Shown here: piece after piece, positions 1-8,334 of the stretch | How positions within the stretch are numbered: position 1 is the stretch's first letter | How the letters are laid out: every line of letters starts with the position of its first letter | Origin: a virus | Taxonomy: Duplodnaviria > Heunggongvirae > Uroviricota > Caudoviricetes | Virus record (IMG/VR): IMGVR_UViG_2681813265_000006 | DNA length: 8,341 bases | Direction: 5' to 3' (one strand) | Notes under the pieces: generated by a model | Database searches by the model: none | Told to the model about the DNA's origin: nothing | What the model saw: the letters and a program-made list of their open reading frames with translations, nothing else | Translations under genes and position numbers: made by a program

Positions 1-37
1 AACAAATGGTAGTGTCCGCTATTGCCAGTACACCTCA
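1..37. repeat. IR-L: left arm of a 37-bp perfect inverted repeat (partner at 8298..8334)
   Basis: Positions 1..37 are the exact reverse complement of 8298..8334. Each arm carries 5 nt of leader, an ATG and the first 10 codons (MVVSAIASTP) of an ORF reading into the window. Identity breaks at 38 / 8297; the arms may extend beyond the window edges. Confidence 0.9.
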
Positions 38-122
38 GGGTATAAGGGGTTATGGCCACCGGACTACCAAACGGCTGCCAGCCCTCTTTCAGTTTATGTG
101 TCAGCTTTTCCGCAAGATCTGA
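6..122 (+). pseudogene. Short ORF (38 aa, MVVSAIASTPQGIRGYGH...) that shares its first 10 codons with gene A (8099..8329) and then diverges; probably a truncated or recombinant remnant
   Basis: ATG at 6..8 inside IR-L, stop TGA at 120..122. Divergence from the gene A sequence begins exactly at the IR boundary (codon 11). Followed by a 12-bp perfect palindrome GGCGGCGCCGCC at 124..135. Confidence 0.3.
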
Positions 123-357
123 CGGCGGCGCCGCCCTGACAACATCATAGTGTTTAAATGCCATGGTTCTTTCCACCATCTGAAAAATAATTCTTTAAAA
201 TACCTGACATGTAATACAGAAAAAACACAAAACCATACCTTAAATAAAAACCTGATTATCAAGCAGATATGCATGGATAAACTACAAGACGAGATATAAA
301 CCACCCTGCATTTAAATAAACAATAAACAACATCAGAAAAATAATTCTGCTCTATGG

Positions 358-384
358 TTTACATTCAAAAATATCATTTATACT
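358..384 (+). promoter_or_regulatory. Putative sigma70 promoter for the ORF at 425..760
   Basis: TTTACA (358..363), 15-nt spacer, TATACT (379..384). An AAGGA Shine-Dalgarno lies at 414..418, 6 nt before the ATG at 425. The region is AT-rich, so promoter-like hexamers are expected by chance. Confidence 0.25.
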
Positions 385-424
385 TTTCAGAACATCACCA
401 GCAAGGCATAAACAAGGAAACTAA

Positions 425-760
425 ATGAAGTGGATTGTGATTGATACAGTTATCCAGCCATCATGCGGAATATCTTTTTCAGTCATATGGAGTAAAATAA
501 AATTAATAATCTGGTATCAATCGGATGCTTTCTTACCTCCTGAAAGTATATTTACACTGACTCACACAGGCATCATGCTCAATAACAAAGTGCTACCTGT
601 AACCATTTACAACGTAGTACCATTCAATAAAACATTCTGGAATTCAATCAAAAATAGCCAGGAATGCCCTACAAATACAGATAACGTATTGAATGAATGC
701 TTTAATAACCGTTGCACTCTGCAAATATGTCCTTATGGACTAAAACAACAAAGTCCATAA
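425..760 (+). CDS. Hypothetical 111-aa Cys-containing protein encoded in an AT-rich island, on the strand opposite to all phage genes
   Basis: 111-codon open frame in markedly AT-rich DNA (where stop codons are frequent), with a good SD (AAGGA, 6-nt spacer) and a candidate promoter. No family recognised by eye. Confidence 0.35.
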
Positions 761-794
761 GGAGTTTACTCACATCTGACAAAATCAATATAAA

Positions 795-816
795 CAGCCC
801 CTCCGGAGAGGGGCTG
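795..816 (-). terminator. Perfect 9-bp-stem hairpin (CAGCCCCTC-cgga-GAGGGGCTG), terminator-like for minus-strand transcripts
   Basis: Stem 795..803 / 808..816, loop CGGA. On the minus strand it is followed by a U-rich stretch (GUUUAUAUUGAUUUUG); on the plus strand no U tract follows. The 3' arm is the first bases of repeat R2 copy A. Confidence 0.35.
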
Positions 817-1022
817 GAGAGTGGCGCTATGTGCCATTGCATGGTGCCGGGTGCCTCCCGGTGAATTCAGTACCAGCACCTGAATCCGCGATTATCCCAT
901 ATACCTACTCGCTGATTGCCCCTCCGCACAGGGGGATTCACCATGCCAGTTTCTTTTAACAAACTCCCCGCAAACCAGACAACAGTCAACCGCCTGAATT
1001 GTGAAGTATTTAAAAATTTCTC
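811..1022. repeat. R2 copy A: ~212-bp direct repeat (partner at 2136..2347)
   Basis: Offset of exactly 1325 bp between copies. One mismatch in the first ~175 bp, about 6 mismatches in the last ~40 bp. Contains hairpins and a conserved SD + ATG (943). Confidence 0.85.
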
Positions 1023-1207
1023 CCGCTAACTGATACCCGGCTAACAGTCTGGCGTTTTCTTTTTCAGCAACGGGAAAGCAACAACCACCACACCCGCCAC
1101 CAGCACACCGTCAGCCAGCACTGACATTATCCGGCTGCTGCAATGCCATTCACAAAAACAGTAAGCAATCACTTTTTACCGTAACAGGTGATAATCCAGA
1201 TATGTAT

Positions 1208-1534
1208 CTACCCCAGATGAGTAATCCGAAGTTCATCCATACCACAGGTCCTGGCTATTCTGTTGTACTCCTGAACAAGAGCAAATAATTCTGAATTAGC
1301 AACCATGAACTCATCGCAAACCCTCTGTATAGCATCACTATTCAGAATAATAACGTCTCTTCCCGAAAGACGATCAGGAGTACAGAACAAAACTGTCAAA
1401 CGGCTGAAGGCCTTTGCTCGTGCTGCATTGACTATATCAATACGCTGCCTAAGGATGAAACACCCCGACGCCTCATCAATATTCACTCTACCCACACCAT
1501 ATGAATGATAAATATTTAATGCTGAAAAAACCAT
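1208..1534 (-). CDS. Hypothetical protein, 108 aa from ATG 1534 (117 aa if the TTG at 1561 is used); unrecognised cargo ORF downstream of tRNA copy 1
   Basis: Longest ORF in the 650-bp block (1023..1671) that is absent from the second module copy. Weak SD. The TTG-start version has a hydrophobic N-terminus (IECLLYGLMVFSALNIY). No family recognised. Confidence 0.3.
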   Translation of the reverse strand: MVFSALNIYHSYGVGRVNIDEASGCFILRQRIDIVNAARAKAFSRLTVLFCTPDRLSGRDVIILNSDAIQRVCDEFMVANSELFALVQEYNRIARTCGMDELRITHLG

Positions 1535-1671
1535 TAGACCGTATAACAAACACTCAATCAATACTTAACAGAACTTTTATTTTTGACAAACATAAAATAT
1601 TTTCAACAATATCCTGAGCCAGGTATATTTCAGTATAAGGCTCTGCCGGAAGGAATCTGGAAGAATGAATA

Positions 1672-1748
1672 TGGCGCGCTGTACTGGATTCGAACCAGTG
1701 ACCGATTGCTTAGAAGGCAATTGCTCTGTCCGGCTGAGCTAACAACGC
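1672..1748 (-). tRNA. argO: tRNA-Arg (anticodon UCU), copy 1
   Basis: Reverse complement folds as a cloverleaf: acceptor GCGUUGU/ACAGCGC (U4-G69 wobble), anticodon loop CUUCUAA, T-loop UUCGAAU, 3' GCCA. Third gene of an ileZ-argN-argO-type cluster as in Stx phages. Confidence 0.85.
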
Positions 1749-1761
1749 TGAATACCGATAA

Positions 1762-1842
1762 TGGACCGCCATCGGGGACCCGCCCCCGCACCAACAACCC
1801 TGTTATCGTGTCGTCTGCTCTTCCTGATAAGCTAATGGCGGT
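1762..1842 (-). pseudogene. Degenerate tRNA-Arg(UCG)-like gene (argN remnant), copy 1
   Basis: The 5' acceptor/D-arm and the 3' acceptor end match the intact copy at 2467..2543, but the central ~35 nt (anticodon arm, variable region and T-loop) are replaced by unrelated sequence. No canonical anticodon stem or T-loop can be drawn. Confidence 0.55.
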
Positions 1843-1848
1843 TTGTGA

Positions 1849-1924
1849 TGGTGGCCCTTGCTGGATTTGAACCAGCGACCTGGCGATTATGAGTCGCTCG
1901 CTCTCACCACTGAGCTAAAGGGCC
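1849..1924 (-). tRNA. ileZ: tRNA-Ile2 (anticodon CAU, ileX-like, lysidine type), copy 1
   Basis: Cloverleaf with anticodon loop CUCAUAA and T-loop UUCAAAU. Near-identical in sequence to E. coli ileX/ileY as I remember them. Identical to copy 2. Confidence 0.85.
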
Positions 1925-1961
1925 GGGAGCAGAATAATAACGGTCCGTAATTAATTCCGCA
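1925..1961 (-). promoter_or_regulatory. Putative promoter of tRNA cluster copy 1
   Basis: Minus strand: -35 TTGCGG (1957..1962), 17-nt spacer, -10 TATTAT (1934..1939), about 8 nt before the tRNA-Ile 5' end. Homologous to 2627..2664 upstream of copy 2. Confidence 0.4.
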
Positions 1962-1962
1962 A

Positions 1963-1987
1963 TAAAAAACCCGCTCGGCGGCGGGTT
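1963..1987 (-). terminator. Duplicate copy of the late terminator tR'
   Basis: Minus-strand hairpin AACCCGC-cgccga-GCGGGUU followed by U6; same sequence as 4193..4217. Confidence 0.7.
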
Positions 1988-2034
1988 GTAGAAACTCTTC
2001 TAACGTCAGGCATAAAACGCCCATAGTTATGACG

Positions 2035-2062
2035 AATTTACCACAGATTCCGGAAAAATCAA
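2035..2062 (-). promoter_or_regulatory. Duplicate copy of the late promoter PR'
   Basis: -35 TTGATT (2057..2062), 16-nt spacer, extended -10 TGGTAAATT (2035..2043). The initial transcribed sequence has AACTAT where the genuine copy has AACGAT. Confidence 0.6.
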
Positions 2063-2135
2063 CCTAGTTACCTTTTTTAACTGCCGCTCAGCCCATGCTT
2101 CTTCAATATCAAACCGAGTCACCAGCGCATCATAA
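2063..2135 (-). pseudogene. Fragment of the Q 3' end (last ~24 codons) fused to R2; remnant from recombination or duplication
   Basis: About 97% identical to 4301..4373 (Q C-terminal codons plus stop region). It lacks the 8-bp tandem duplication present in the intact gene. Homology ends abruptly at 2135/2136 where R2 copy B begins. Confidence 0.8.
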
Positions 2136-2347
2136 GGGCTGGAGAGTGGCGCTATGTGCCATTGCATGATGCCGGGTGCCTCCCGGTGAATTCAGTACCA
2201 GCACCTGAATCCGCGATTATCCCATATACCTACTCGCTGATTGCCCCTCCGCACAGGGGGATTCACCATGCCAGTTTCTTTTAACAAACTCCCCGCAAAA
2301 CAGACAACTGTCAACCGTCTGAATTGTGAGACATTTAAAAAAAAGGC
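2136..2347. repeat. R2 copy B (partner at 811..1022)
   Basis: See copy A. Begins at the junction with the Q fragment; its other end overlaps the tRNA-cluster terminator. Confidence 0.85.
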
Positions 2348-2362
2348 CCGCAAAAGCGAGCC
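2337..2362 (-). terminator. Rho-independent terminator downstream of tRNA cluster copy 2
   Basis: Minus-strand RNA GGCUCGC-UUUU-GCGGGCC (7-bp stem with one U-G pair) followed by U8. The plus-strand equivalent would have a C-A mismatch and no U tract. Confidence 0.7.
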
Positions 2363-2376
2363 AGGGAAAATAAGTG

Positions 2377-2453
2377 TGGCGCGTTGTACTGGATTCGAAC
2401 CAGTGACCGATTGCTTAGAAGGCAATTGCTCTGTCCGGCTGAGCTAACAACGC
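2377..2453 (-). tRNA. argO: tRNA-Arg (anticodon UCU), copy 2
   Basis: Same cloverleaf as copy 1 but with U4-A69 Watson-Crick instead of U4-G69. Confidence 0.85.
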
Positions 2454-2466
2454 ATGATGCAGATAA

Positions 2467-2543
2467 TGGACCGCCATCGGGGACTTGAACCCCGCGCAGC
2501 CAGCTTCGAAGGCTGGCGCTCTTTCCTGATGAGCTAATGGCGG
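2467..2543 (-). tRNA. argN: tRNA-Arg (anticodon UCG), intact
   Basis: Acceptor CCGCCAU/AUGGCGG, D-stem GCUC/GAGC, anticodon stem CCAGC/GCUGG with loop CUUCGAA, T-arm CGGGG-UUCAAGU-CCCCG, 3' UCCA. Confidence 0.8.
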
Positions 2544-2550
2544 TATGTGA

Positions 2551-2626
2551 TGGTGGCCCTTGCTGGATTTGAACCAGCGACCTGGCGATTATGAGTCGCT
2601 CGCTCTCACCACTGAGCTAAAGGGCC
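2551..2626 (-). tRNA. ileZ: tRNA-Ile2 (anticodon CAU, ileX-like), copy 2
   Basis: Identical to 1849..1924. Confidence 0.85.
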
Positions 2627-2664
2627 GGGAGCCGCATAATAACGACGCGTAATTAATTCTTCAA
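2627..2664 (-). promoter_or_regulatory. Putative promoter of tRNA cluster copy 2
   Basis: -35 TTGAAG (2659..2664), 17-nt spacer, -10 TATTAT (2636..2641); directly abuts the methyltransferase stop codon. Confidence 0.4.
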
Positions 2665-2666
2665 TA

Positions 2667-3725
2667 TCATCCGTTCTGGCTGACTAAATCCTGTACTTCC
2701 CGAACCGTCTGCTCAAAACGTTCAGTCTCCAGCTCAACGCCAATTGCACGACGCCCGAGCGCCAGTGCCGCTTTCACTGTCGAACCCAACCCCATGAAAA
2801 AATCTGCAATCAGGTCACCCGGACGACTGCTAGCGCTGATTATCTGCTGCAGCATTTCTGCCGGTTTTTCGCACGGATGTTTCCCGGGATAGAACTGCAC
2901 CGGTTTATGCGTCCACACATCGGTATACGGCACCTGCACCGTCACGCCAAAATACCGCCGCAGATGTTTATATTCACTCAGCAGCTCCGCATACTGCCGG
3001 TTCAGTGAGGTATACGTATCCACCAGCTGGTGGTGGAGCTTTTCCAGTTCACCACGCCGATGCTTCTCTTCTGCCACCCGGGCAAACAGCGCCTGTAATT
3101 TCAGATAATCGCTTTCATTCGGCAACTGCCACTGACCGGCACTGAACCAGTGCGACACCATGTTTTTCTTTCCTGTGGCATCTGCAATCTGTTTTGCCGT
3201 TATCCCCAGGGCAGCTCGCGCATCACGAAAGTAAGAAATCAGCGGGGCCATCACATGCTGTTTCAGTGCACTGCCCTTCGCCGCATACCCGGCATCTTTC
3301 GGACGATACGGCCCCTGATAATGTTCCGCGAACAGAATGCGCTCTGTGGCGGGGAAATACGCCCGCAGGCTTTCCTTGTTGCATCCGTTCCAGCGTCCGG
3401 ACGGCTTCGCCCAGATAATATGGTTCAGCACACTGAAGCGTTCACGCATCATGATTTCGATATCAGATGCCAGGCGATGACCACAGAACAGGTAAAGACT
3501 TCCGGCAGGTTTCAGCACCCGCCAGAACTGCGCCAGACACTGGTCCAGCCACTTCAGGTAATCATCGTCGCCCTTCCACTGGTTATCCCAGCCCTCAGGC
3601 TTCACTTTAAAGTACGGCGGGTCCGTGACTATCAGGTCAACAGAATTTTCGGGTAACGACCGGATAAATTCCAGGCAGTCGGCGTTGATTAACTCACAAC
3701 TGGATATTTTTACAGTATTAAGCAT
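2667..3725 (-). CDS. Orphan DNA N6-adenine methyltransferase, beta class, prophage-encoded (352 aa)
   Basis: DLIVTDPPYF (motif IV, DPPY) near the N-terminus and FFMGLGSTVKAALALGRRAIGVE (FxGxG motif I, SAM-binding) near the C-terminus; the order IV then I indicates the beta class. The central region has an HTH-like segment (GITAKQIADATGKK...). No restriction endonuclease partner is present in the window. Confidence 0.8.
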   Translation of the reverse strand: MLNTVKISSCELINADCLEFIRSLPENSVDLIVTDPPYFKVKPEGWDNQWKGDDDYLKWLDQCLAQFWRVLKPAGSLYLFCGHRLASDIEIMMRERFSVLNHIIWAKPSGRWNGCNKESLRAYFPATERILFAEHYQGPYRPKDAGYAAKGSALKQHVMAPLISYFRDARAALGITAKQIADATGKKNMVSHWFSAGQWQLPNESDYLKLQALFARVAEEKHRRGELEKLHHQLVDTYTSLNRQYAELLSEYKHLRRYFGVTVQVPYTDVWTHKPVQFYPGKHPCEKPAEMLQQIISASSRPGDLIADFFMGLGSTVKAALALGRRAIGVELETERFEQTVREVQDLVSQNG

Positions 3726-3818
3726 GGATCATTAAGCCTGTCTCTGATAGGCTCATTCTGCTTTTGCGCAAAGCAGTGGGCCTGAGGTTTGCTTGTGAAC
3801 CCAACGCATGAGCAGATG

Positions 3819-3847
3819 GCTGGTGGGTGCCCCTAACACCCACCAGC
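3819..3847. other. Perfect 11-bp-stem palindromic hairpin (GCTGGTGGGTG-cccctaa-CACCCACCAGC) in the methyltransferase leader
   Basis: Seen directly in the sequence; no U tract on either side. A second near-perfect palindrome lies at 3758..3776 (CTGCTTTtgcgcAAAGCAG). Confidence 0.6.
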
Positions 3848-3860
3848 CGCCCATTTACCA

Positions 3861-3889
3861 CAAATAAAAAAGCCTTCACTGCGGAAGGC
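3861..3889 (-). terminator. Rho-independent terminator downstream of the small HTH ORF
   Basis: Minus-strand RNA GCCUUC-CGCAGU-GAAGGC followed by UUUUUUAUUU. The HTH ORF stop codon lies inside the hairpin. Confidence 0.6.
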
Positions 3890-4073
3890 GTCTGTAACAA
3901 CCGAACTGATAGTCTGCCAGACCCGCCATAACCAGCTGGGTCAGTATTAACTGGCAGCGTTCGCGTGAAAGGTAAGTATTCTGCGCTATCTCCCCGACTG
4001 TCGCCGGTTCGGTAACGCTTAATTCATTAAACACCACTCTGGCGGTTTCTGTCATATCCTGCTGTTTTAGCAT
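3876..4073 (-). CDS. Small (65 aa) putative winged-helix / HTH DNA-binding protein
   Basis: Good SD (AAGGA, 6-nt spacer). The segment TVGEIAQNTYLSRERCQLILTQLVMAGLADYQ resembles the recognition helix and wing of small wHTH regulators. First gene of the HTH-methyltransferase cassette. Confidence 0.45.
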   Translation of the reverse strand: MLKQQDMTETARVVFNELSVTEPATVGEIAQNTYLSRERCQLILTQLVMAGLADYQFGCYRRLPQ

Positions 4074-4192
4074 GTCTTTTCCTTTTCCGGTTAACGTGAC
4101 ACACCAATAACTCTTGTCGAAAAAGCCAGCAAGCTGAAAGACAGGTATTCACCGCCACCAGCGCGTTTACTGTACTGACGCGATTTCAGTCA

Positions 4193-4217
4193 TAAAAAAC
4201 CCGCTCGGCGGCGGGTT
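4193..4217 (-). terminator. tR' late terminator ending a short PR' transcript of about 65 nt
   Basis: Minus-strand hairpin AACCCGC-cgccga-GCGGGUU followed by UUUUUUAU, about 40 nt downstream of the predicted PR' start. Confidence 0.75.
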
Positions 4218-4252
4218 GTAGAAACTCTTCTAACGTCAGGCATAAAACGCCC

Positions 4253-4292
4253 ATCGTTATGACGAATTTACCACAGATTCCGGAAAAATCAA
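4253..4292 (-). promoter_or_regulatory. Late promoter PR' with sigma70-dependent pause element (qut region)
   Basis: -35 TTGATT (4287..4292), 16-nt spacer, extended -10 TGGTAAATT (4265..4273), then AACGAT at about +1..+6 (4253..4258). This is the same -10-like pause-inducing hexamer as in lambda PR'. Located immediately downstream of the Q stop codon. Confidence 0.7.
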
Positions 4293-4297
4293 CCTTG

Positions 4298-5119
4298 TTA
4301 CCTAGTTACCTTTTTTAACTGCCGCTCAGCCCATGCTTCTTCAATATCAAACCGGGTCACCAGCGCATCATAAAATTTCTTAACTGTTTTTTCCCATGAC
4401 GCGCGTGTTATCTGGTTTGTCACCTCGCATATAGCATTAAATGCCTCCGTTGATGGTAGTCTTTCATAGCCACGACCACCACAACGCTGGCAGTCTCTGA
4501 TAACAGGCATACCACGTTTTACCGACTCTTCACGATGAATGGCGACACCACGCCCACGGCAATCCTTACAGGCGGTGGAAACCTCACCCTTTCCGCCACA
4601 CTCCGGACAGGCAACTTTTACCACCTCCCTGACTTTTTTCCATTCTTCCCAGTAAGACGGATACACACCTTTCGTACACTTTGCCCATACCGGCGGCTTA
4701 CCATCCGGATACTGGATCTTGTTTGTAAAAACCTCGCTTTCAATAAATTTTTTTCCGTGACAGCAGGGGCACTGTTTTTTGCTCGCCGCGCTACGGGCAT
4801 AATCTTCAAACGCATACGAAGCCATAATACGCATCACTGCCGGTTTTATTTCTGCCGGGAGTTTTCTTAACGCCGCCACGCGATCACACCGACTGAGTGC
4901 ATATTCTGTCAGCAATTCTGTTGCCCGCTCTCTGTCATTCATACTAATGCCCATTTTCCCAAGGAACGCAGAAACCCCCATCTCAGCCCGATTCTGTGTC
5001 ATGCCCTGCGCGGCCATCACATCAGTGATACTCAGCGCATCTTTCGACGTTGAGGCCGATGCATCAGTCAGGCCGGGGGATTTTGGGGAGTAGTATTTCG
5101 GTAAATCTTCCAGTTTCAT
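4298..5119 (-). CDS. Q: Late-gene antiterminator Q (273 aa)
   Basis: Position immediately upstream of a lambda-like PR'/tR' unit. Several CxxC pairs (CPCC, CPEC, CKDC, CQRC) consistent with Q-family zinc fingers. ATGA overlap with rusA. Confidence 0.8.
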   Translation of the reverse strand: MKLEDLPKYYSPKSPGLTDASASTSKDALSITDVMAAQGMTQNRAEMGVSAFLGKMGISMNDRERATELLTEYALSRCDRVAALRKLPAEIKPAVMRIMASYAFEDYARSAASKKQCPCCHGKKFIESEVFTNKIQYPDGKPPVWAKCTKGVYPSYWEEWKKVREVVKVACPECGGKGEVSTACKDCRGRGVAIHREESVKRGMPVIRDCQRCGGRGYERLPSTEAFNAICEVTNQITRASWEKTVKKFYDALVTRFDIEEAWAERQLKKVTR

Positions 5120-5496
5120 TTTTTGACCTGCCCTTCAAGCATTATGGGATAAATCTTCACCCCCAGACGTCCACCAGATACTGGCTGAGCACGAACGATA
5201 TTGATTTCATCAAACTGCTCATCGTCCATTAGCAACCCCGCATGCGTCAGCGCATCCAGCGGCGCTTTCAGAATATTGTCCAGGTCACGGCGGCGCTTAT
5301 CCGGTGGTTCTGCAATAATTTTTATTGCCAACCTTCCGGACAGGCTTAATTTCAGCCGCTGCTGGCGAACAATAAGCGCCACTGCCCGGCGATAACGCTC
5401 CCCGGCTTTTGATACAAAATATGTGCTGCCACGACGACGCCAGTAAGTGTTCACCGTCGGCGGGTAAGGTAAAACAAATTCTATGCGCTCGGTCAT
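5116..5496 (-). CDS. rusA: Holliday-junction resolvase RusA (126 aa)
   Basis: N-terminus MTERIEFVLPYPPTVNTYW and the acidic catalytic region RRRDLDNILKAPLDAL...LLMDDEQ match RusA. Its start abuts the stop of the upstream ORF (TAAATG). Confidence 0.85.
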   Translation of the reverse strand: MTERIEFVLPYPPTVNTYWRRRGSTYFVSKAGERYRRAVALIVRQQRLKLSLSGRLAIKIIAEPPDKRRRDLDNILKAPLDALTHAGLLMDDEQFDEINIVRAQPVSGGRLGVKIYPIMLEGQVKK

Positions 5497-6555
5497 TTAT
5501 GCTTTCCACTTCAGAACACCCGAATTTCTCGCGTGCATTAAAAAACGAATCAGCAACAACAGCTGACTGCCGTGTTTCTCTTCAAAATCTTTTACTCCGG
5601 CATGTAGTTCGTTACGGCATTTACGGCATAACGGAATAACAAACAAATCATCAGCCTTTGTTCCCATCCCTCCCAGTCCATGACCAATGATGTGATGCGG
5701 ATCATCTGCCTGATTGCCACACGTCATGCATTTCTGCGTTTTTACCCAGCGCGTGTATACAGGCATCTCTTCCCGTTGTGATTTCTGGCGCTGGAGATAC
5801 TGAGCCGGTGACTCCGGATCAACGGCAATGCTGACCACCGTCTTTTCCTGTGGTGGGTTCTGTTGCTGGTGGACGTGAGGCAGTAACGCAATATTTTTTG
5901 TGCGCTGCTTCAGTATGCTGGTGGCTGTCTGCTCTCCCGGTATGATGTCGCTTTCACTGTACACAGAGCGAATTTTTTCCGCACGCAACCCCAGCGAACG
6001 ACGTAATACCGCTTCCGGTAGCGCGTCCGCCACCTGATTGCGGACCGCCCACCAGGATAATTCAGCCAGAGATAATTCACGCTCCTGCGTACCGCTTATT
6101 GCGTGACCGATGACGTCAATCATCCATGCTGACAGGTTTTGATGAGCAAGTTGCTCGAGTGATTCGGATGTCTGGTCACGCAGCTGGTTGTCGCAGTGCC
6201 AGCACAACACCATTGCGCCGGTACCATAACGGTGAATGACGGTTTCGCTGTGATGATAATCGCCGTGTGGCCACTGGCAGGATTTAATATGGCGCAACAG
6301 CCAGTCAGACAATGCACCAGCACCACCAGCAGCACGAATCACCCGTGCGTTACTGAAAAACGGCAGCAATGTTTTGTCTTCCACCAGCGGCTGGCGAGCG
6401 GCAGGAACGACCCCGGACGGCAGATTACGCATGCTTTTTGGTTCCGGCTCCACCAGTATTCTGCCGTTATGGAATGCTGACATTGATTCACGGCCTGGCT
6501 TAACGATAACCAGACCGAGTTCCGGTACCAGAACAGGTCGAAGTAATACCCGCAC
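5497..6555 (-). CDS. Prophage nin-region protein, YdfU-like (DUF968) with a C-terminal Cys/His-rich HNH-like motif
   Basis: Synteny hokD-rem-(this ORF)-Q as in the Qin prophage. C-terminal CMTCGNQADDPHH...CRKCRNELH resembles NinG/HNH zinc motifs. The start is ambiguous: GTG 6555 has GGAGG 4 nt upstream; the alternative ATG at 6483 gives 328 aa. Confidence 0.55.
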   Translation of the reverse strand: MRVLLRPVLVPELGLVIVKPGRESMSAFHNGRILVEPEPKSMRNLPSGVVPAARQPLVEDKTLLPFFSNARVIRAAGGAGALSDWLLRHIKSCQWPHGDYHHSETVIHRYGTGAMVLCWHCDNQLRDQTSESLEQLAHQNLSAWMIDVIGHAISGTQERELSLAELSWWAVRNQVADALPEAVLRRSLGLRAEKIRSVYSESDIIPGEQTATSILKQRTKNIALLPHVHQQQNPPQEKTVVSIAVDPESPAQYLQRQKSQREEMPVYTRWVKTQKCMTCGNQADDPHHIIGHGLGGMGTKADDLFVIPLCRKCRNELHAGVKDFEEKHGSQLLLLIRFLMHARNSGVLKWKA

Positions 6556-6630
6556 ATTACCTCCAGATCCGTTGCTGGAATGTGCGGGACGGACGCGTTG
6601 GCCGTTCGGAGTAAGGGAGCCTGACGGAGA

Positions 6631-6912
6631 TTATCCAGTGACGGTAGTCGAGGCTAAGGGCTTTTTTAACCTCGCATCCGCGCCTGCGGTAACACTGAAT
6701 GAGCCATTCGGCCTGTTCTTCAGTGCATGGGGGATGCTGGTACCAATCAGATTTAAATGCGTGAGAGCGCCGCCCGTGCCTGCTGGCAAAGACGGCTGAA
6801 TTATCAGAATTGTGTAGTCTGGAAGGCAGTGGCTGACAATAGCGCCATTCTCAACGCGCACAGTATAGAGGCCATCTTCACTAAAAATTTCACGTAATTC
6901 TTCGATTTTCAT
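6631..6912 (-). CDS. Rem-like small ORF (93 aa) at the position of Qin rem
   Basis: ATG at 6912 preceded by GGAAGGA with an 8-nt spacer. The N-terminal 25 residues look protein-like; the remainder is low-complexity and overlaps a long stop-free alternative frame (see findings). Confidence 0.4.
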   Translation of the reverse strand: MKIEELREIFSEDGLYTVRVENGAIVSHCLPDYTILIIQPSLPAGTGGALTHLNLIGTSIPHALKNRPNGSFSVTAGADARLKKPLASTTVTG

Positions 6913-7033
6913 CAACAGAATCCTTCCAGATAAATAGCACTCCCCTGTTCGGGGTCCATCCCTCTTCTCCCTGCGCGCTACTTAAGTATTTTTGATTCTA
7001 TTCCGGCACCATCTAAAACTTCAAACGCGTTGA

Positions 7034-7064
7034 AAATAAAAACAAAAACCCGCCGAAGCGGGTT
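7034..7064 (-). terminator. Rho-independent terminator of the hok transcript
   Basis: Minus-strand AACCCGC-UUCG-GCGGGUU followed by UUUUGUUUUUAUUUU. A GAAA-tetraloop stem-loop (plus coordinates 7104..7125) lies just after the hok stop. Confidence 0.75.
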
Positions 7065-7132
7065 AAGTGTGGGTGCATTGAGGATGCCTGACCCATCAGA
7101 GGTGGCGAGGGATTTCTCCCCCGCCTGGTCTC

Positions 7133-7288
7133 TTACTCCTCAGGTTCGTAAGCTGTGAAGACAGCGACCTCCGTCTGGCCGGTTCGAATTCGTACCTCGC
7201 AGAGGTCTTTCCTCGTTACCAGTGCCGTCACTATGACGGTTAAACAGATGACGATCAGGGCGATTAACATCGCCTTTTGCTGCTTCAT
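7133..7288 (-). CDS. hokD: Hok-family type I toxin, HokD/RelF-like (51 aa)
   Basis: Translation MKQQKAMLIALIVICLTVIVTALVTRKDLCEVRIRTGQTEVAVFTAYEPEE matches HokD as I remember it. SD AAGGAG lies 9 nt upstream. The ORF-track version (7133..7345) adds an in-frame 19-codon extension. Confidence 0.85.
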   Translation of the reverse strand: MKQQKAMLIALIVICLTVIVTALVTRKDLCEVRIRTGQTEVAVFTAYEPEE

Positions 7289-7499
7289 AGCCTGCTTCTC
7301 CTTGCCTTTCGGCACGTAAGAGGCTAACCTAGATTTGCCGTTCATAGATTGAGCCTCAGATTAATGTTAAGCGTCTTGCCGGACGCGTAATGTTAACTGG
7401 GGCTTTTCTCTATCTGCCTTTTGGTGTTCATGCCTGAGACAGATAGCCTCAAGCACCCGCTGCAATTCTACTTAACTCTCCTTTTCCCGCAAACCGTTT

Positions 7500-7583
7500 T
7501 TATCCCCAGCGGCAAATCGAATACACCACCAGCGCCACCGCCATCGCAATTCCTACCGTTGTTAATGCTTCAGGCCAGGTCAT
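7500..7583 (-). CDS. 27-aa hydrophobic peptide ([27 protein letters not shown]), translationally coupled to gene C
   Basis: Its ATG overlaps the gene C stop (ATGA). A single predicted transmembrane helix. Below the ORF-track size cutoff, found by manual translation. Confidence 0.4.
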
Positions 7584-7924
7584 CGTAAAATATCCTCCAC
7601 GCTTATCAGTCCGTTCCGCTCCAGATAACTCATCGCCTTATCCGGTAATTTGCAGTCTGGCTTCGCTTTCCTCAGTTGCCAGGTTAACTGCTTTACCAGC
7701 ATGGTTAACTCATCGACCAGACGCTGATATCCCACTGGTTTGTATTCATGCAATTTACCGGCTGGCTCTGCTGCCAGCGATACCAGTGCGATTTCCAGAA
7801 CAGCAATATCCATCTTATATGTGCGGATGATGTCATGGTCGATTGTGCCCGGTATGCACAGTCTCTGTGCTTCAATAGTCTCCTCTGCGTGAGCTATTAA
7901 CTGCTCTCTGGTAAAAGTCGTCAT
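7580..7924 (-). CDS. Hypothetical nin-region protein C (114 aa), paralogous to gene B
   Basis: Its ATG overlaps the gene B stop (ATGA). Shares MTTxTxE at the N-terminus and an A(L)xSLxAEP motif with gene B. Confidence 0.6.
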
Positions 7925-8088
7925 GCCGTAGCCCCTTCTTGATATTTTTCAAACCAGAACACAACCGGCTCTGCTTCCAGCGATGCCAGCGCAATCCGTG
8001 CCAGTTCCATTTGTTCACCACGGGTAAGCCCGTTTTCAAGCGGGTTTTTAATGAACAATTCAATACGTTCTTTGGTAATAGTGGTCAT
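7921..8088 (-). CDS. Hypothetical nin-region protein B (55 aa), short paralog of gene C
   Basis: ATG at 8088 preceded by AAGGAG (6-nt spacer), which overlaps the gene A stop. Translation [55 protein letters not shown]. Missed by the ORF track because it is under 60 aa; the track's 7872..8063 ORF is the wrong frame. Confidence 0.55.
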
Positions 8089-8098
8089 GTGTTACTCC

Positions 8099-8329
8099 TT
8101 AACCCGCAGTGCTTTCAACTGATGAGGGGAACAAAATCTTTTCATCAAACCCTGCATTCATATCATGAACAGCAACACACCAATCCATCGACGAACGATT
8201 ATCAAGAGCCTCCATGATTTCATCCATGCGGCGTAGGTCATACAGGTAAATGCTTTTATCGCCAATGGTGTAAAAGCCAATTTTTTTCGGTGATGGATGA
8301 GGTGTACTGGCAATAGCGGACACTACCAT
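8099..8329 (-). CDS. Hypothetical protein A (at least 76 aa), first gene of the coupled A-B-C-D operon; its start lies within IR-R
   Basis: The ORF reads from the ATG at 8329. There is no in-frame stop in the 4 codons upstream before the window edge, so the true start may lie outside the window. No family recognised. Confidence 0.45.
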   Translation of the reverse strand: MVVSAIASTPHPSPKKIGFYTIGDKSIYLYDLRRMDEIMEALDNRSSMDWCVAVHDMNAGFDEKILFPSSVESTAG

Positions 8330-8334
8330 TTGTT
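8298..8334. repeat. IR-R: right arm of the 37-bp perfect inverted repeat
   Basis: Exact reverse complement of 1..37; contains the ATG (8327..8329, minus strand) of CDS 8099..8329. Confidence 0.9.

Follow-up and report, generated by a model that had tools for sequence, protein, structure and literature searches.

Among the annotated sRNA families STnc100 ranks with the most abundant, and some of its copies adjoin Shiga toxin genes. In strain EDL933, RNA-seq reads were reported for 11 STnc100 copies, one of which was confirmed by northern blotting (PMC5331693). The copy downstream of stx2B, the best-studied member of the family, is identical to EcOnc27 and sRNA103; transcripts of fimZ and espA were elevated upon overexpression of EcOnc27, a finding presented without a mechanism (PMC7873438), and SNPs in the stx2-linked copy have been reported as predictors of HUS (PMC12711010). 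EcOnc05, encoded in prophage Sp4 of strain Sakai, was described as an Hfq-crosslinked RNA (CRAC cluster) with a northern band of approximately 222 nt (Tree et al., 2014; PMC4104026 supplement). PasD, known from EPEC E2348/69, is an Hfq-dependent RNA with a terminator and many RIL-seq partners, and both its RIL-seq chimeras and its predicted seed lie in the 3′ part. Surveys based on Rfam give no function for STnc100 (PMC9029176).

The window analyzed in this study is a stretch of 8,341 nucleotides of viral DNA (IMG/VR record IMGVR_UViG_2681813265_000006). It contains a direct repeat, R2, with copy A at positions 811-1029 and copy B at positions 2136-2354 (219 nt per copy, 94% identity, 13 differences). 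A scan against all Rfam families matched RF02076 (STnc100) to copy A at 975..786 on the minus strand with 132.4 bits (E 9e-30) and to copy B at 2300..2125 on the minus strand with 103.7 bits. Both copies thereby exceed the curated gathering score of 47 bits, and both matches span the full model (1-206). The consensus helices of the family, i.e., the closing helix, CCCCU/AGGGG, the variable hairpin(s) and CCGGG-AGGCA-CCCGG, are found in both copies, while the last helix of the model, the 3′ intrinsic terminator, is present in copy A and absent from copy B. From approximately 994 to 797, copy A has the same sequence as the Sakai Sp4 locus which holds EcOnc05 (argO, terminator, element). The published northern probe for EcOnc05, AATCCGCGATTATCCCATATACCTACTCGCTGATT (PMC4104026 supplement), fits the plus strand of the window without any mismatch at 883-917 and at 2208-2242. 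In the same table, the oligonucleotide given for AsxR has the reverse-complement sequence of that RNA. The listed oligonucleotides are therefore antisense, which places the EcOnc05 RNA on the minus strand of the window.

The match to RF02076 and the identity to a published RNA mean that the element is already known. Judged by its sequence, R2 is a catalogued prophage sRNA gene, STnc100 (EcOnc05 in E. coli O157), which is present in two copies and reads on the strand opposite to the one considered in the first-pass annotation. With its minimal 5′ end at G946, the sRNA gene of copy A comprises core, linker and terminator at 786..946 (minus strand), as delimited by RF02076, the Sakai Sp4 identity, the probe and the minimum free energy (MFE) fold. 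Expression and Hfq association of copy A are presumed by analogy to the identical Sakai sequence, which belongs to another strain. Taken as a whole, a minus-strand STnc100 sRNA gene that occurs twice in a lambdoid late-gene leader, with a folded core and a putative Hfq-linked mechanism, is very probably the correct explanation of R2.

When read on its reverse strand, the window proves to be the late-gene leader ("moron") region of a lambdoid prophage. Along this strand the gene for antiterminator Q (PF03589; 5119..4298) is followed by a DNA methylase gene (3725..2667) and by a first tRNA cluster (tRNA-Ile2, tRNA-Arg, tRNA-Arg), which lies between the methylase gene and copy B. The terminator of this phage tRNA cluster (ileZ-argN-argO; 2345..2362, minus strand) is located just upstream of copy B, which is also the arrangement in Sakai Sp4. 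Copy B is followed by a duplicated 3′ end of Q with its downstream segment, by further tRNAs, by a DUF3927 gene (1172..1041, minus strand) between these second tRNAs and copy A, and by copy A itself. An iraM-like gene (425-760, plus strand) is convergent with copy A, and past this gene the lysis cassette starts along the minus strand. The same order recurs in other genomes, where Q is followed by tRNAs, stx2B or DUF3927, then by STnc100 and then by a convergent partner or by lysis genes.

Some further features of the window were recorded. The second tRNA cluster contains two tRNAs according to ARAGORN and Rfam, compared to three in the first cluster, with the middle argN (anticodon tcg; 1779-1849, minus strand) being missing or degenerate. 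A hok/sok type I toxin-antitoxin locus is present at 7283-7458 on the minus strand (sok: 112 bits), and just downstream of it, at 7043-7124 (minus strand), lies a weak isrK-like match of 25.7 bits, which does not reach the cut-off of 50. Positions 1-37 and 8298-8334, at either end of the window, are perfect inverted copies of each other over 37 nt. Among the best-matching complete genomes listed (approximately 95% identity), the alignments cover only 35..8297, with different sequence at both ends. The terminal inverted copies could have arisen at the end-point of an inversion or as a fold-back artefact of the assembly.

For a closer view of the RNA, relatives were gathered with the exact 19-mer CACCGGGAGGCACCCGGCA (863..845), which was found in at least 120 stretches of GTDB species genomes and in at least 120 stretches of viral contigs from IMG/VR. 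Keeping only elements in which the outer helix has at least six of eight pairs yielded 235 unique elements; a set of 142 non-redundant representatives was used as well, and for covariation 66 sequences representing many genera were aligned with MAFFT. Of the cells of this alignment, 85.5% are paired under the named structure, compared to 41-48% with the partners slid. Changes on both sides of a pair occur in 268 cells versus 97 in shuffles, and none of 500 shuffles reached 268. The core of approximately 110 nt consists of four helices, P1, P2, P4 and P5, and a pseudoknot, and the support from covariation is strong for P1 and P4. The closing helix P1 (GCAUGGUG at 946..939 with CACCAUGC at 846..839, minus strand) occurs in 95 different 8-bp strand pairs among the 235 unique elements, shows double-sided changes in six of its eight pairs and is paired in 92% of the cells. 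The P4 hairpin (GGAUUCAG at 887..880 with CUGAAUUC at 870..863, minus strand), which also appears in the MFE fold, has double-sided changes in seven of eight pairs, with 84% of the cells paired. P2 (CCCCU at 934..930, loop GUGCGG, AGGGG at 923..919, minus strand), known from both the Rfam match and the MFE fold, is mostly invariant, being 85% paired with a double-sided change in one of five pairs. As the P5 hairpin (847..861, minus strand; CCGGG-AGGCA-CCCGG, a consensus helix of the Rfam model) lies within the 19-mer used as search key, its covariation is uninformative. The consensus helices recur in the MFE fold predicted for copy A (z = -2.66).

In addition to these helices, a pseudoknot was identified in the STnc100 core, which joins the stretch following P2 with the loop of P4 (AUCAGCG at 916..910 with UGCUGGU at 878..872, minus strand, in copy A). 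Its 5′ strand begins at a consistent offset of two to four bases past P2. On the MAFFT alignment all five pairs show double changes, with only 58% of the cells being paired. As this count is noisy, an alignment-free complementarity test was used. Across 140 elements, the longest complementarity between the two stretches had a mean of 5.59, compared to 4.15 with the element's own loop shuffled, 4.32 with its own loop reversed and 4.46 with the loops of other elements. At least 6 bp were reached by 87 of these elements, and by 26 with the loop reversed; the pairings were of 80 distinct kinds. The structure line of the Rfam match does not include this pseudoknot and a recent preprint on Pas and STnc100 RNAs does not mention it.

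The first-pass annotation had described R2 as a structured element with a conserved Shine-Dalgarno (SD) sequence and a short open reading frame on the plus strand. The sequence details behind this description are all present. Next to the 219-nt two-copy repeat itself, these are GGGGGA (931-936 in copy A), followed after 6 nt by the ATG at 943 on the plus strand, with the same SD-like layout in both copies, as well as the inverted repeat CCCC-TCCGCACA-GGGG (920-935 in copy A) and five differing codons among codons 1-22, three of which are synonymous. The suggestion that R2 is a structured and possibly regulatory RNA was borne out too, by the STnc100 match and the covariation of the helices, albeit for the minus strand. 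The conserved frame, in contrast, does not hold outside close relatives. Among the 235 unique relatives, an ATG occupies the homologous position in no more than 52; in about 20 of these 52 the frame stops after 2, 5, 10 or 13 codons, and in one it is frameshifted. For the member downstream of stx2B the homologous frame amounts to a mere 10 codons (MRNFFNKCSV). The annotation itself had named a lack of ATG or frame conservation among homologs as the outcome that would speak against it, and on this point its reading fails. Moreover, the peptide of the ORF at 943..1029 has no match in Pfam. The excess of synonymous differences may be due to chance: with 23% of the possible single-base changes being synonymous, at least three of five are expected with P = 0.086, based on few events. 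That both copies share a frame is expected from any recent duplication.

All apparent plus strand signals have a counterpart in the minus-strand RNA. The ATG is the complement of CAU in P1 (ATG at 943-945), whereas GGGGGA and the "SD hairpin" are P2, CCCCU-GUGCGG-AGGGG (934..919), read on the opposite strand; of these two helices P1 is strongly covarying and P2 near-invariant. Of the 13 positions at which copies A and B differ, 12 are located within 947-1029, i.e., upstream of the structured RNA, and the sole difference in the RNA body, at 844, falls in the closing helix, where G-C becomes G-U. SD, ATG and ORF on the plus strand are by-products of the sRNA helices and of the upstream region. 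Neither ORF is a gene: the one in copy A (943..1029, plus strand, 28 codons) is antisense to the 5′ end of the sRNA and to the upstream region, and the one in copy B (2268..2447, plus strand) extends in antisense orientation over the tRNA terminator and into tRNA-Arg(tct) (2377-2453). A plus strand leader or regulatory element with a hairpin-masked SD and the conserved frame MPVSFNKLPA..., or else the remaining 5′ part of a gene that both copies have lost, could in principle receive a transcript by read-through from the convergent iraM-like gene, and the frame is open in both copies. With the published RNA being located on the opposite strand, this explanation is nevertheless hardly tenable. 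The idea of a lost gene or of a late-gene 5′ UTR is furthermore contradicted by copy A and 58 of the 142 representatives ending in a terminator of their own.

The case illustrates that a structured sRNA gene and the region upstream of it can, on the opposite strand, mimic an SD sequence, a hairpin and an ORF, and automatic annotation errs in the same way. PGAP places a pseudo "hypothetical protein" on the plus strand over copy A (831-959 in the window) and likewise at 9072-9197 of a related stretch (L001), and a 399-nt CDS is annotated antisense over most of PasD1 (1101-1499, minus strand, of L244). Such antisense coding features over STnc100 and PasD1 are probably spurious and of the same kind as the plus strand ORF.

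At the 3′ side, the core of copy A is followed by a linker (838..817) and by an intrinsic terminator identified in a terminator scan, with its stem-loop at 816..795 and a U-rich tail at 794..786 (minus strand). A strict terminator within 110 nt downstream was found for the 58 non-redundant relatives mentioned above, compared to 14 in the reverse-complement control and nine in the upstream control. At the 5′ side, the region 947..1009 (minus strand), which aligns with the upstream region of PasD1, may serve as promoter and/or as 5′ leader. It includes the candidate sigma-70 elements TTGTCT (982..977) and TAAAAG (958..953), which are separated by an 18-nt spacer, and also TTGACT (989..984). A promoter scan upstream of P1 yielded no consensus site, and the positional profile of the 142 elements exhibits a weak AT-rich, -10-like signal at this place. 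A sigma-70-type promoter of copy A is therefore to be regarded as a candidate.

For the 5′ end of the RNA there are two estimates, which differ by approximately 60 nt. By alignment with PasD1, whose RNA-seq 5′ end is the G of GCAUGGUG, position +1 would correspond to G946 in copy A and to G2271 in copy B. The EcOnc05 band of approximately 222 nt would instead place the 5′ end near 1009, just past the argO terminator. The RNA of copy A would thus start between G946 and approximately 1009, and in either case the plus strand ORF is antisense to the 5′ part of the RNA or to its promoter. A start near 1009 would provide the RNA with the G/U-rich leader GGUUGACUGUUGUCUGGUUUGCGGGG (947-1009, minus strand), which may resemble the G/U-rich seed of GcvB.

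The position of the longer 5′ end right behind the argO terminator would also fit with processing of a read-through transcript, i.e., with R2 being a cis-acting processing or termination module of the phage late transcript which closes the tRNA/moron segment and is not an independent gene. The terminator at its end and the invariable co-orientation of the element with Q, tRNAs and late genes are in agreement with this idea. However, STnc100 is abundant in uninduced cultures, and copies exist outside late operons. In addition, the 5′ end of PasD1 coincides with P1 and lies downstream of -10/-35-like hexamers, and TATAAT-like hexamers stand a few bases upstream of P1 in many relatives from other genera, as seen by eye and with a weak positional signal. 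A purely cis-acting role therefore appears improbable, and an sRNA gene with its own promoter is the preferred reading of copy A.

Copy B (2136..2271, minus strand) has its upstream region, core and linker intact and has lost its terminator. In place of the terminator, the junction 2135/2136 leads into the 3′-terminal 74 nt of a Q gene and its downstream segment (together 1955-2135). This stretch corresponds to 4185-4373, which reveals a tandem unit composed of the Q 3′ end, tRNAs and STnc100. As a consequence, 25 positions of the RF02076 model are replaced, with the alignment diverging past ...CCAGCCC. The next terminator on the minus strand is located at 1987..1968. Copy B is probably a 3′-truncated gene, which would yield a read-through transcript or none. 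In its lost terminator it is similar to the variant PasA-3, which is described without a terminator in the Pas preprint. The junction could not be found in one piece in any of 5,426 complete E. coli genomes, which suggests a rare rearrangement or an assembly artefact.

A rearrangement junction inside the element, together with the occurrence of STnc100 at up to 12 places per E. coli genome, would also be compatible with R2 acting as a repeat at the DNA level, i.e., as a recombination patch between prophages that is kept by copying and not by virtue of any RNA. This is very unlikely, as compensatory changes keep four helices intact across genera, the enrichment of terminators is strand-specific and the RNA itself has been detected.

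Not all members of the family adhere to the structure described for copy A. In 23 of the 142 representatives P2 is swapped wholesale, with UGCG/CGCA in place of CCCCU/AGGGG, and the outer helix of this divergent "type 2" sub-family is much longer, reaching up to approximately 18 bp. Examples are L004:842-973, L018:2314-2445, L019:4083-4216, L026:1785-1923 and L144:9760-9901, among others. Several type 2 copies are followed, at a distance of 20-60 nt, by a small ORF that has an SD-like sequence. When seven type 2 loci were scanned with Rfam in gathering mode, only the one in L019 reached the cut-off (47.8 versus 47), so that this sub-family appears to be mostly missed by Rfam. Tandem arrays of three to five STnc100-like elements, with a spacing of approximately 250 nt (568 nt in L076), were observed in five stretches from IMG/VR and GTDB (L141, L154, L191, L079 and L076). 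No mention of the pseudoknot, the type 2 sub-family or the tandem arrays was found in the papers considered.

The identity of R2 as STnc100 does not by itself explain how the RNA acts. Hfq crosslinking, a published dependence of RNA stability on Hfq, the RIL-seq partners of PasD and the effects of EcOnc27 overexpression point to an Hfq-associated, trans-acting sRNA. By analogy with these relatives, the RNA of copy A would be transcribed from its own sigma-70-type promoter in the lysogen and bound by Hfq at its U-tail. The single-stranded parts outside the core, that is the 3′ linker and, if present, the 5′ leader, may then pair with target mRNAs, as RIL-seq suggests for PasD, on which this step is modeled. 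The folded core, in turn, may stabilize the RNA or dock a partner.

The conservation of this core across genera is unusual for a base-pairing sRNA and hints at a function beyond or besides seed pairing. The main rival to the model outlined above is accordingly an unusually conserved, pseudoknotted core with a partner of its own. In this case the core would be a folded RNA domain which binds a protein or a small molecule, or which serves as a decoy, with the Hfq-linked flanks being secondary. The 19-mer and the near-invariant GGUGAAUCCCCCU..GCGG..GGGGC are shared by many genera of the Enterobacterales, including Kosakonia, Pantoea, Erwinia, Rahnella and Klebsiella, while the flanks and the internal insert vary freely. 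The pseudoknotted fold is about the size of a riboswitch aptamer, and both the tandem arrays and the copies adjoining core genes, away from any obvious prophage, would suit such a domain. On the other hand, no partner is known, members of the family have Hfq crosslinking and RIL-seq targets, and no riboswitch or ribozyme model of Rfam matches the window. Moreover, selecting the relatives by the 19-mer makes the conservation look higher than it is. A folded domain as the primary function is a possibility to be taken seriously, but it is considerably less probable than the Hfq-associated model. About the same, rather limited probability is given to a related idea, according to which prophages carry the core of approximately 110 nt, whose loops and junctions are nearly invariant among many Enterobacterales genera, as a functional module, with variable seed flanks linked to Hfq being attached to it.

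A further option is a dual-function sRNA which also encodes a peptide on the sense strand, with an AUG at +3 (MVNPPVRRG...). An AUG or GUG is found at the start of P1 in 101 of the 142 representatives, and some STnc100 copies of EDL933 exhibit footprint-to-RNA ratios of 2-3, whereas others have ratios of only 0.04-0.6 (PMC5331693). However, 41 of the 142 representatives have no start codon at this place, the frame can be as short as 5 or as long as 76 codons (median 18.5) and similarity is confined to the part that is fixed by the RNA sequence. It is thus most doubtful that such a peptide is produced, and an Hfq-associated, trans-acting RNA is still the favored model for STnc100.

Beyond the sRNA families discussed so far, three other types of element were compared with R2 and rejected. 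A decoy of the CsrA type, as might be suggested by the GGA in P2 and in P5, does not fit with the GGA of P2 not being conserved (variants GCGGC and GCGGU). A tRNA-like fold with P1 stacked on P5 is contradicted by a 5-nt loop that is not a T-loop, by the absence of a CCA and by negative results of both ARAGORN and the Rfam tRNA model. The third is an anti-sRNA similar to AsxR or AgvB on the plus strand of R2, a review speaking of sRNA "dyads". AsxR and AgvB (RF02703 and RF02702) are neighbors in the moron region and the sole plus strand RNAs known beside STnc100 genes. They are not homologous to STnc100, are convergent with it and lie past its terminator (2390-2442 versus 2444-2649 in the Stx2 phage), so that AsxR of this phage does not overlap the STnc100 gene. 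Neither RF02703 nor RF02702 matched the window at E up to 1, while the Stx2-phage positive control gave 88.1 bits. The convergent partner of STnc100 in the window is iraM, a position that is held elsewhere by AsxR, AgvB or EcOnc08.

Compared to the described members of STnc100, the findings on R2 are additions to a known family and do not constitute a new kind of element. These additions are the pseudoknot, the type 2 sub-family and the wide spread across the Enterobacterales; the structural details among them offer experimental handles and leave the identity of the element unchanged. With EcOnc05 and EcOnc06 (Sakai Sp4 and Sp17) and with EcOnc27, the window copies share the helices, the slot that extends from the late promoter or tRNAs to the lysis genes, and the orientation with respect to the late genes. 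In comparison to the STnc100 copy of the Stx2 phage (207.7 bits), the internal variable hairpins are partly missing from them, and their 3′ linker is a different one. PasD1 and PasD2 of EPEC E2348/69, the homologs of EcOnc13, occupy the same slot as R2, in the order DUF3927, sRNA and holin, and PasD shares with R2 the upstream TTAAAA box, P1 (GCAUGGUG), a P2-like hairpin and P4. The likeness is, however, restricted to the 5′ half. PasD1 has a degenerate P5/19-mer (GCGGGAGGCGCCAUGCG) and a linker with a UGUGAG seed that is absent from the window copies, so that R2, differing in P5 and 3′ linker, is related to PasD and not PasD itself. In line with this, PasD1 reaches 37.7 bits against RF02076, which is below the cut-off of 47, whereas both copies in the window are canonical STnc100.
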